Below are positions 55,580 through 56,557 of a stretch of 57,034 bases of DNA, one piece after another. The DNA comes from Chloroflexi bacterium HGW-Chloroflexi-9 (lineage in GTDB: Bacteria > Chloroflexota > Dehalococcoidia > UBA2979): the NCBI GenBank assembly GCA_002840675.1, contig PHBR01000002.1, forward strand, positions 1-57,034. The letters run 5' to 3'. Under the pieces are notes generated by a model, which saw nothing but the letters and a program-made list of their open reading frames with translations, did no database searches and was not told the origin of the DNA. The stretch's first letter is position 1, and every line of letters starts with the position of its first letter. A program made the position numbers and the translations under genes.

Positions 55580-56557
55580 CTATGATGGATAGTTGATATC
55601 CATGGTCTGTTCGCCAGGGTTCAGCGGCGCGAATGACGCTCGCGACGTTCTGCACCAGACATGGCTCAGGCGCATGCCGCCCCGAATGCGAAACCCATCG
55701 ACCGATCGGATCGGGGAGTCCAGCGCAGTCTCGAAGCTCGGGAAACGAAGGACTACCACATTCCACTTTCGGCGGACGACTCCGGTGAGGGGGACCCGGA
55801 ACTCGTCCAATGGCGTGCCAGAGAACCCCCACTGACCGAAGTTCGTCGAAACGTAGAGCTTGATCGCTCGACCGTCGGTCAGTGTGCAGGCCAGATAGAA
55901 ATGCACATCGTCGACCGGCATCACGCGAAACCCGACCGCACCAGCCCTCGCGTCCAAGGTGTCGCTCGGAGGAAATCGATACCCCTCGTCATAGGACGCG
56001 GCCGCGACGTAGCGCCTCGCAATCTGCAATTGGCCAGATCCCGCATACCGCACCCACCCGACGTCGAGCGCAAGGCGTCGGTCGCCGAGGTAAACACCTG
56101 CCTCCGACTGCTCGGGGCCGCGGTTCTGCTCGACGGCCACAACTGTGCCCGCGGTCGCGAACGTCGGGCTCGCGATCCCGGTCGCCTCCGATAGAGCGGC
56201 GATTAACACCCCGGCGTCTGTTTCACACGAGATCGCCATGTTAAATGAAAAGGGCGGGGGAATGCTGTCGGGAGAAAGGCCATCCAGCAGCACTGGAATG
56301 ACGGGCTTACCCAGTGCCCAGGCAGCACCGCCTTCGAAGAACAACCAGGGGCGACTTACGGATCGTCGCGAGAACGCGACGACGACGACCTGCGCGCTCC
56401 GCAGGTTCTCCTGAATCGATTGCCACCAATCAGCACCGGGCGCGATTTCCGAGCCAGATACATAGATTGTGAGTCCGGGCAAGCGCGAGCGAAGGTGGTC
56501 GGCGAGACGGTTAACCTCGTCCGCATCTTCTACGGCATGACTCATGAAGACATGCAT
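55580..56557 (-). CDS. TIR-domain protein with unassigned ~200-aa C-terminal domain
   Basis: Start probably MHVFMSH (56557). VFMSHAVEDADEVNRLADHL...IAPGADWWQSIQENLRSAQVVVVAFSRRSVSRPWLFFEGGAAW has bacterial TIR layout with a candidate catalytic Glu. The C-terminal half is beta-rich and unrecognised. Confidence 0.7.
   Translation of the reverse strand: MHVFMSHAVEDADEVNRLADHLRSRLPGLTIYVSGSEIAPGADWWQSIQENLRSAQVVVVAFSRRSVSRPWLFFEGGAAWALGKPVIPVLLDGLSPDSIPPPFSFNMAISCETDAGVLIAALSEATGIASPTFATAGTVVAVEQNRGPEQSEAGVYLGDRRLALDVGWVRYAGSGQLQIARRYVAAASYDEGYRFPPSDTLDARAGAVGFRVMPVDDVHFYLACTLTDGRAIKLYVSTNFGQWGFSGTPLDEFRVPLTGVVRRKWNVVVLRFPSFETALDSPIRSVDGFRIRGGMRLSHVWCRTSRASFAPLNPGEQTMDINYPS

Follow-up and report, generated by a model that had tools for sequence, protein, structure and literature searches.

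TIR proteins are immune executioners common to bacteria, plants and animals, and their sensing half is the part that varies between systems and is least understood. Defence by a single TIR protein has been shown experimentally in Escherichia coli, where 37.5% of the 32 TIR candidate systems put to the test conferred phage protection (PMC11350192). The E. coli proteins carry transmembrane, AAA, TPR or DUF4238 domains, and a jelly roll is not reported among them (PMC11350192). SpbK of ICEBs1 is a further one-protein example. In CBASS Cap12 (TIR-STING), TIR-SAVED and Pycsar PycTIR, a TIR effector is joined to a regulatory or receptor domain. In the NADases AbTIR, BtpA and PdTIR, the TIR domain comes with N-terminal regions that are coiled coils or of other kinds, and a jelly roll is lacking.

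Here, we describe a gene in a 57,034-nucleotide stretch of DNA from Chloroflexi bacterium HGW-Chloroflexi-9 (contig PHBR01000002.1, positions 1 to 57,034), hereafter the window. A first-pass annotation had read it as a solo TIR-domain protein with an unrecognised C-terminal domain. Like the single-protein systems, it combines a TIR and a non-TIR domain in one polypeptide, has no obligatory partner and lies in mobile or variable DNA, and its predicted mechanism, NAD+ depletion after a cue is sensed, would also be the same. The architecture of a TIR effector with a putative regulatory domain is shared with Cap12, TIR-SAVED and PycTIR. In contrast to those proteins, its TIR domain is of the TIR_2 family (PF10137 is absent from its clade but present in 13 sister clusters), a jelly roll replaces the SAVED, STING or cNMP-binding receptor half, and no cyclase is adjacent in four loci. 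Among proteins of solved structure, AbTIR, BtpA and PdTIR match the present protein best in sequence and have the FxSH start and the WxxxE motif in common with it, whereas its TIR domain is N-terminal and short (~128 aa). The gene is organized as follows:

55580..56557, minus strand: whole gene, 325 codons plus stop, encoding a TIR_2 domain, a variable linker and a jelly-roll domain (translation P0001)
56174..56557, minus strand: TIR domain, residues 1 to ~128, with a flavodoxin-like beta-alpha fold, assigned by Pfam TIR_2, profile matches to the PDB and Foldseek
56333..56347, minus strand: WxxxE motif, W71-L-F-F-E75, aligned with W-T-N-Y-E of AbTIR chain 8g83_A
56102..56173, minus strand: linker, residues ~129-152, poorly conserved and probably flexible (predicted local distance difference test score, pLDDT, below 50 for residues 129-150)
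55583..56101, minus strand: jelly-roll domain, residues ~153-325, a putative sensor or regulatory module, from an AlphaFold2 (AF2) model and structure comparison

The effector (TIR) half is ordinary; what is new is the jelly-roll partner domain. This C-terminal module is uncatalogued, very rare and re-used across immune effector types. We propose, with a probability of roughly one half, that the product of the gene is a cytoplasmic immunity protein of the abortive-infection type that works alone, as sensor and effector in one. The effector would be the TIR_2 domain at the N-terminus. Copies brought together would become active by oligomerization and cleave NAD+ at the WxxxE site (W71 and E75), as in AbTIR, SARM1, TIR-STING and SPARTA, and this putative NADase activity would stop the growth of the infected cell, giving an antiphage phenotype. 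The C-terminal jelly roll would keep the TIR domain inactive until a presumed infection cue is bound, and would then release or assemble it. The gene would travel alone as cargo of mobile DNA.

The TIR assignment survives a hidden Markov model (HMM) check. P0001 matches PF13676 (TIR_2) with 61.5 bits against a cut-off of 28 (E 1.4e-16), residues 3-97 covering profile positions 1-95 of 122, and a six-frame search of the genome agrees. All motifs listed by the first-pass annotation are found in P0001, namely F4-M-S6-H7, P40-G-A-D-W-W, V56-VVVAFS and F73-F-E75-G-G-A-A-W. The Glu of the FFEGG segment, which it had singled out as the key residue, is encoded by codon 56333-56335, TTC on the plus strand and hence GAA (Glu75) on the minus strand. 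The stretch P-W-L-F-F-E-G of P0001 aligns on D-W-T-N-Y-E-L of AbTIR (8g83_A, described as 'NAD(+) hydrolase AbTIR'), which brings Glu75 onto the WxxxE glutamate. In NAD-cleaving TIR domains such as AbTIR and SARM1, catalysis depends on this Glu. The position is Glu in 27 of the 29 family members having a TIR-type N-terminus, and the next Gly is kept in 27 of 27. Judged by this alignment, W71 and E75 form the intact WxxxE motif of the NAD-cleaving bacterial TIR type.

Profile and structure searches place the domain among known TIR effectors. A full-length profile of six homologues, compared with the PDB, retrieved AbTIR (8g83), the related TIR chain 7uxr, BtpA/TcpB and PdTIR (E 2e-5 to 7e-4). 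The full-length AF2 model, built from 6 sequences, has low confidence (pLDDT 63.8) and was used for the TIR half only, where the pLDDT is 65-84; Foldseek matched this half to TIR-STING, SPARTA TIR-APAZ and SARM1. The TIR (PF01582) model scored under its cut-off on P0001, and an NCBIfam search of P0001 returned no model over threshold. PADLOC matches of P0001 are weak and confined to the TIR half (TIR-TM, E 4.5e-8; ThsB, 1.5e-3 or weaker), and the PADLOC spbK model weakly matched one member of the jelly-roll family (E 2.4e-4).

The closest solved sequence relatives being AbTIR-type enzymes, which make isomers of cyclic ADP-ribose (ADPR), the TIR domain could instead act as a signal generator in the manner of ThsB or AbTIR. 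It would then produce a cyclic-ADPR-type or other ADPR conjugate after sensing by the jelly roll, and a separate effector would be encoded elsewhere. Weak ThsB matches (PF08937, E 0.0019; PADLOC ThsB, E about 1e-3) point in the same direction. However, the comparison with Thoeris that the first-pass annotation had proposed did not bear out membership in that family, the PF08937 score being under the curated cut-off (19.0 vs 21.2 bits). No SIR2-, SLOG- or Macro-type (ThsA-like) neighbour occurs in the window or in the homologous loci L001-L004, nor is any other neighbour conserved in four loci, and in the sister branch the jelly roll is joined to effector-type TIR domains. We consider a signal-generating role improbable and retain the effector role for the TIR domain.

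The C-terminal half was said at first pass to match nothing known, which holds at the level of sequence but not at the level of fold. P0001 gave no match for this half in Pfam, NCBIfam, PADLOC or PHROGs, nor did the 42 relatives in Pfam or PADLOC. The AF2 model of the C-terminal part, from a 44-sequence alignment, is of high confidence (pLDDT 93.3; predicted template-modelling score 0.88) and shows a beta jelly roll with one short helix; the beta-rich character noted from the sequence is seen in both AF2 models. Foldseek against the PDB returned chains of ~185 residues from ciliary doublet-microtubule structures (E 1e-8; template-modelling (TM) score 0.63-0.68). A comparison with 48,161 representatives by VIA-align gave 9e78_X first (Z 15.6, root-mean-square deviation 2.5 Å, 152 of 183 residues), followed by residues 201-371 of D-glucuronyl C5-epimerase (Glce; Z 13.9, 141 residues) and 9e2g_1V (Z 13.6). 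For the two ciliary chains, 152-153 residues are aligned with deviations of 2.5-2.9 Å. Every other chain, including many carbohydrate-binding modules (CBMs), GH16 and GH11, had Z <= 7.9. Independent support comes from the ESM Atlas model of the homologue P0010, which has a CFA20_dom cluster as its top neighbour (TM 0.74), with DUF3047 and Glce_b_sandwich next. Because of this top neighbour, the microtubule chains are taken to be CFAP20/FAP20, an identification made from chain size, the PDB entries and the ESM Atlas result rather than from the chain annotation.

These models indicate that the C-terminal half folds into a jelly roll whose topology is that of CFAP20/FAP20 (PF05018) and of the Glce beta-sandwich (PF21174) over nearly the whole domain. 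A published description of FAP20 calls it a beta jelly roll and notes its resemblance to carbohydrate-binding modules (PMC6994238). The identity of the bacterial domain to the CFAP20 and Glce chains is only 9-12%. PF05018 (CFA20_dom) gave nothing at E <= 10 in the six-frame genome search and is not among the Pfam matches of the 42 members. DUF3047 (PF11249), sought in 300 genomes of the phylum, was not found there, nor in the controls. Among the BFVD viral structures, only weak CBM-like tail-fibre matches were obtained (E >= 1.3e-3).

The specific structural likeness to a ciliary protein is unexpected. CFAP20 differs in being a eukaryotic, tubulin-lattice-binding protein without a TIR partner, and the likeness of fold need not mean common ancestry. 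A more far-reaching idea is that the bacterial domain is truly homologous to the CFAP20 domain, to DUF3047 and to the beta-sandwich of Glce. It would then be an ancient binding module, put to use in bacteria as the sensor of immune effectors whose outputs are TIR_2, CBASS/Pycsar-type TIR, membrane-spanning or cyclase-like. By analogy with the binding of CFAP20 to the tubulin lattice, it might recognize a repetitive polymer surface made during infection. We hold this idea to be doubtful. If true, the family would be a new one of one-protein defence systems, and CFAP20 would gain a relative in a bacterial conflict system.

The conserved residues of the jelly roll are G154, Y156, W168, Y171, P196, D199, R211, Y221, E252, P256, W265, R292, S298 and H299, among which ten polar or aromatic ones are kept family-wide (Y156, W168, Y171, D199, R211, Y221, E252, R292, S298 and H299). 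In the close clade, the mean pairwise identity is 54% for the TIR domain and 50% for the jelly roll, and 22% for residues 101-152. Since the polar core residues of the jelly roll are as well conserved as the catalytic domain, a single fixed ligand or a conserved partner surface is a more likely cue than changing phage proteins.

Relatives of the protein are few. A word-indexed search of 5.8 billion proteins found four, of which three are full-length (38-48% identical) and the fourth, P0005 (214 aa), seems to be a frameshifted copy. The window and three metagenome loci supplied a profile of the last 181 residues. This profile was compared with 1.84 billion representative proteins and detected the domain in 42 clusters (50% identity clusters), 30 of them at E <= 1e-10. 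The N-terminus is TIR_2 in 12 of the 42 clusters and CAP12-PCTIR_TIR (PF10137) in 13. The CAP12-type clusters also match the PADLOC models of the CBASS 'Effector TIR' (E to 5e-49) and PycTIR (E to 4e-38), in each case over the first ~150 residues only. Since these matches cover the TIR half only, the jelly roll takes the position of the receptor (SAVED, STING or cNMP-binding). Four further members (P0025, P0028, P0033 and P0037) have N-termini without a Pfam or PADLOC match, some of which contain hydrophobic segments that look membrane-spanning by eye.

By its architectures, the jelly roll appears as a mobile module that also occurs on TIR effectors of the CBASS and Pycsar type. Because one conserved module joins interchangeable output domains, it is probably a sensor or regulatory domain of immune effectors. 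We found no description in the literature of a TIR domain partnered with a jelly-roll, CFAP20, concanavalin-like or galactose-binding domain. An additional C-terminal domain of ~110 aa follows the jelly roll in many CAP12-type members (seen in P0018, P0023, P0026, P0027, P0032, P0035, P0036, P0042, P0043 and P0044). Its pattern, ..V.G....V.V.V...D..WY.Q......G.W.....FG......G..F.I.A.., has no Pfam match and is also seen by eye before the jelly roll in P0028 and P0033.

The same architectures bear on the main rival to a stand-alone protein, namely that it serves a nucleotide second-messenger pathway of the CBASS, Pycsar or Thoeris kind, as an effector that has been orphaned or acts in trans. 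The jelly roll would then be a new small-molecule receptor, the counterpart of a SAVED, STING or cNMP-binding domain, with the signal-making enzyme encoded elsewhere or lost from the locus. In the 13 sister clusters, the domain is joined to a CAP12/PycTIR-type TIR that otherwise occurs on messenger-activated effectors, although the TIR domain of P0001 is TIR_2 and not of this type. The conserved polar and aromatic set listed above would fit a pocket for a fixed ligand. One member, P0016, is fused to an N-terminal region with a weak likeness to class III nucleotide cyclases (PDB 5oyh, E 0.008; cyclase matches in the PDB at E 0.008-0.1); this region found no support in Pfam or PADLOC and serves as a lead only. 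A decayed cyclase lies in the same island as the gene:

47483-47780, plus strand: truncated, frameshifted remnant of a CBASS-type oligonucleotide cyclase (PADLOC PDLC00787 positions 145-210, E 1.2e-16; positions 216-244 in another frame, E 2e-4)

The remnant lacks the N-terminal catalytic half, since the preceding response-regulator gene ends at 47339. It is supported by the PADLOC model only; phmmer searches of both open reading frame (ORF) pieces against the PDB returned nothing. An insertion sequence (IS) of the IS3 family directly downstream of the TIR gene could have split off a partner gene. Against a messenger pathway, the remnant is 7.8 kb from the TIR gene, on the opposite strand and in the broken state described, no cyclase or CD-NTase stands beside the gene or its close homologues in four loci, and the genome itself (82% complete) contains neither an intact SMODS domain nor a class III cyclase (Guanylate_cyc). 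We regard a messenger receptor as possible, with distinctly lower odds than the stand-alone sensor-effector.

The neighbourhoods of the homologues are consistent with a gene that acts alone. The claim made at first pass that no same-strand partner gene is present needs rewording: same-strand neighbours do exist in the window (IS3 and methyltransferase genes), but none is a conserved partner. All neighbours differ across four independent loci, and no conserved partner gene was found among them. The window gene is flanked by nrdJ and IS3. In L001, the homologue is followed by a ParE-like toxin gene, and in L002 by genes for a Fib_succ_major protein, an HNH-like protein and a DUF900 hydrolase. 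In L003/L004, the closest P0004-type homologue lies downstream of two genes:

L003:73-471, minus strand, and L004:95-493, minus strand: N-terminal fragment of an integrase (Phage_int_SAM_4, E 3.5e-33), integron-integrase-like by eye
L004:657-1322, plus strand: QueC-like gene (Pfam QueC, E 3e-29; PADLOC QueC, 4.9e-27, and QatC, 4.6e-6)

The arrangement in L003/L004 may be an integron cassette array.

The window gene is real and intact. The frame is open over 341 codons from the first GTG (55580..56605, minus strand; ORF list). Close homologues begin with MHVF, MRVF or MLIF, and the start is likely the ATG at 56557 because these N-termini agree with it. The gene is covered by contig pieces without a single difference in four runs, each from a different study (groundwater, an unspecified metagenome, activated sludge and soil), so that it is not an assembly artefact. 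One record spans from the IS end into the 3' flank of the TIR gene. The RNA runs listed contained small parts of the window only. The guanine-plus-cytosine (GC) content of the gene is 61.5%, with 71% at third codon positions (GC3), compared with 68-71% for the IS3 genes, 67-69% for the two methyltransferase genes and 74.7% for the nrdJ tail (GC3 93%), which bears out the lower GC reported at first pass (61.5% vs 67-75%). The jelly-roll domain was found in none of 400 other genomes of the phylum, and a pattern scan with two TIR-motif seeds over one genome per species (185,579 species) returned no full-length relative. On the basis of these three observations, the gene is horizontally acquired and patchily distributed.

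An intact, conserved gene is also of relevance to the idea that it has no part in immunity. It might serve the mobile element as a selfish, toxin-like addiction or cargo gene, encode a metabolic enzyme of TIR/nucleoside-hydrolase-like type equipped with a carbohydrate-binding module, or be a decaying passenger that no longer has a role. The jelly-roll fold is common to carbohydrate-binding modules, but the similarity is generic: CBM29, CBM86, CBM11 and others reach Z 6.4-7.9, language-model neighbours lie at 0.90-0.92, and no Pfam CBM family matches any family member. The region from 47 to 56 kb is rich in broken genes (the cyclase fragment and IS3 orfB), and the ParE-like gene of L001 would suit a toxin-like role. 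These points are countered by the intact ORF, identical in four independent data sets, and by the retention of conserved residues in both domains among relatives of only 38-48% identity. P0001 carries neither the signal peptide nor the membrane anchor that an extracellular carbohydrate role would call for, and the generic CBMs stay at Z <= 7.9 against 13.6-15.6 for CFAP20 and Glce. A non-immune role seems unlikely to us.

Several observations weigh against a stand-alone immunity protein. The locus context comes from four loci, three of them on contigs shorter than 7 kb. The neighbour comparison covers the TIR_2 clade, and beside the CAP12-type members a cyclase is conceivable. All 42 clusters are metagenomic, and the functional role of every member is a prediction from sequence and models. 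No relative was found among the IMG/VR viral contigs, nor by tblastn in 50,697 phage records and 72,556 plasmids. A jelly roll conserved to nearly the same degree as the TIR domain (50% vs 54%) is unusual for a direct sensor of phage proteins. The island genes tested are mostly metabolic or regulatory, such as an acetyl-CoA hydrolase, a rhodanese and a histidine kinase/response regulator pair. Finally, antiphage activity was absent from ~60% of the candidate TIR systems examined in E. coli (PMC11350192).

The work defines a small, uncatalogued family of sensor-like domains, with about 42 clusters among roughly 15 billion proteins. Its recombination with at least two TIR families and other output domains is characteristic of a regulatory immune-effector module. 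If the jelly roll binds a small molecule, it would constitute a new class of second-messenger or metabolite receptor, and if it binds a phage structure, a new pattern-recognition domain. Because the family is rare and occurs only in uncultured organisms, the finding has a limited reach.

The TIR gene is the last gene in a 41.5-kb insertion in the 3' end of nrdJ, bounded by a 39-bp repeat. The position given at first pass, between a dead IS3 copy and an att-like repeat, proved accurate, with the IS3 element ~100 bp downstream and the repeat 187 bp upstream of the gene, the gene start being that far inside the boundary at 56744. The features of the surroundings are:

56744..56782, no strand assigned: att-like 39-bp direct repeat (family D15), covering the nrdJ 3' end; its partner at 15197-15235 is identical at 36 of 39 positions
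54206..55476 (about), minus strand: IS3-family element, with ends taken from contig loose ends and piece ends
55120-55434, minus strand: IS3 orfA (HTH_Tnp_1)
54389-55123, minus strand: IS3 orfB (HTH_21 and rve), frame broken, the rest continuing in another frame at 54249-54740
51800-52975, minus strand: Type II DNA methyltransferase (PADLOC MTase_II, E 2.3e-44, profile positions 23-325 of 436), with no Pfam match at E <= 0.1
49579-50169, plus strand: DUF488 protein (Pfam, E 3e-31), also matching the PADLOC candidate defence models PDC-M45B (E 1.7e-29) and PDC-M19A

A second IS3 copy, 72-85% identical, is present at 18622-19497. The description of these surroundings as defence-island-like is only partly sustained. 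The Type II methyltransferase, the DUF488 candidate models and the cyclase fragment support it, whereas the other methyltransferase (53169-53945) is a generic UbiE/COQ5-type S-adenosylmethionine enzyme, the island genes are mostly metabolic and no recombinase is present. A prophage was considered and rejected: the contig lacks a tRNA, a tyrosine integrase and a serine recombinase, and the tested genes are metabolic or regulatory. If the island was once an integrative element, its recombinase has been lost.

The last 10 kb of the island look like a variable, decaying region. An ORF there at 47637-48416 (minus strand) resembles, by eye, the N-terminal FAD-binding part of a type II NADH dehydrogenase; it is probably a gene fragment, because it overlaps the cyclase remnant on the other strand within this decaying region. 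Elsewhere in the genome (contig C120, L084:2667-3941, plus strand), a second TIR_2 protein is encoded. Its 424 aa comprise an unassigned 290-aa N-terminal region and a C-terminal TIR domain (E 4.5e-14), without a jelly roll, and its gene lies ~600 bp from a divergent ORF (L084:893-2071, minus strand) that by eye encodes a Dcm-type cytosine methyltransferase. At the other end of the island, the segment 13000-15200, just outside the orphan nrdJ tail, has a likewise low GC content (62-65%), ORFs without a Pfam match and a short IS3-like repeat (13174-13206). The foreign DNA may therefore extend leftwards past the repeat at 15197.

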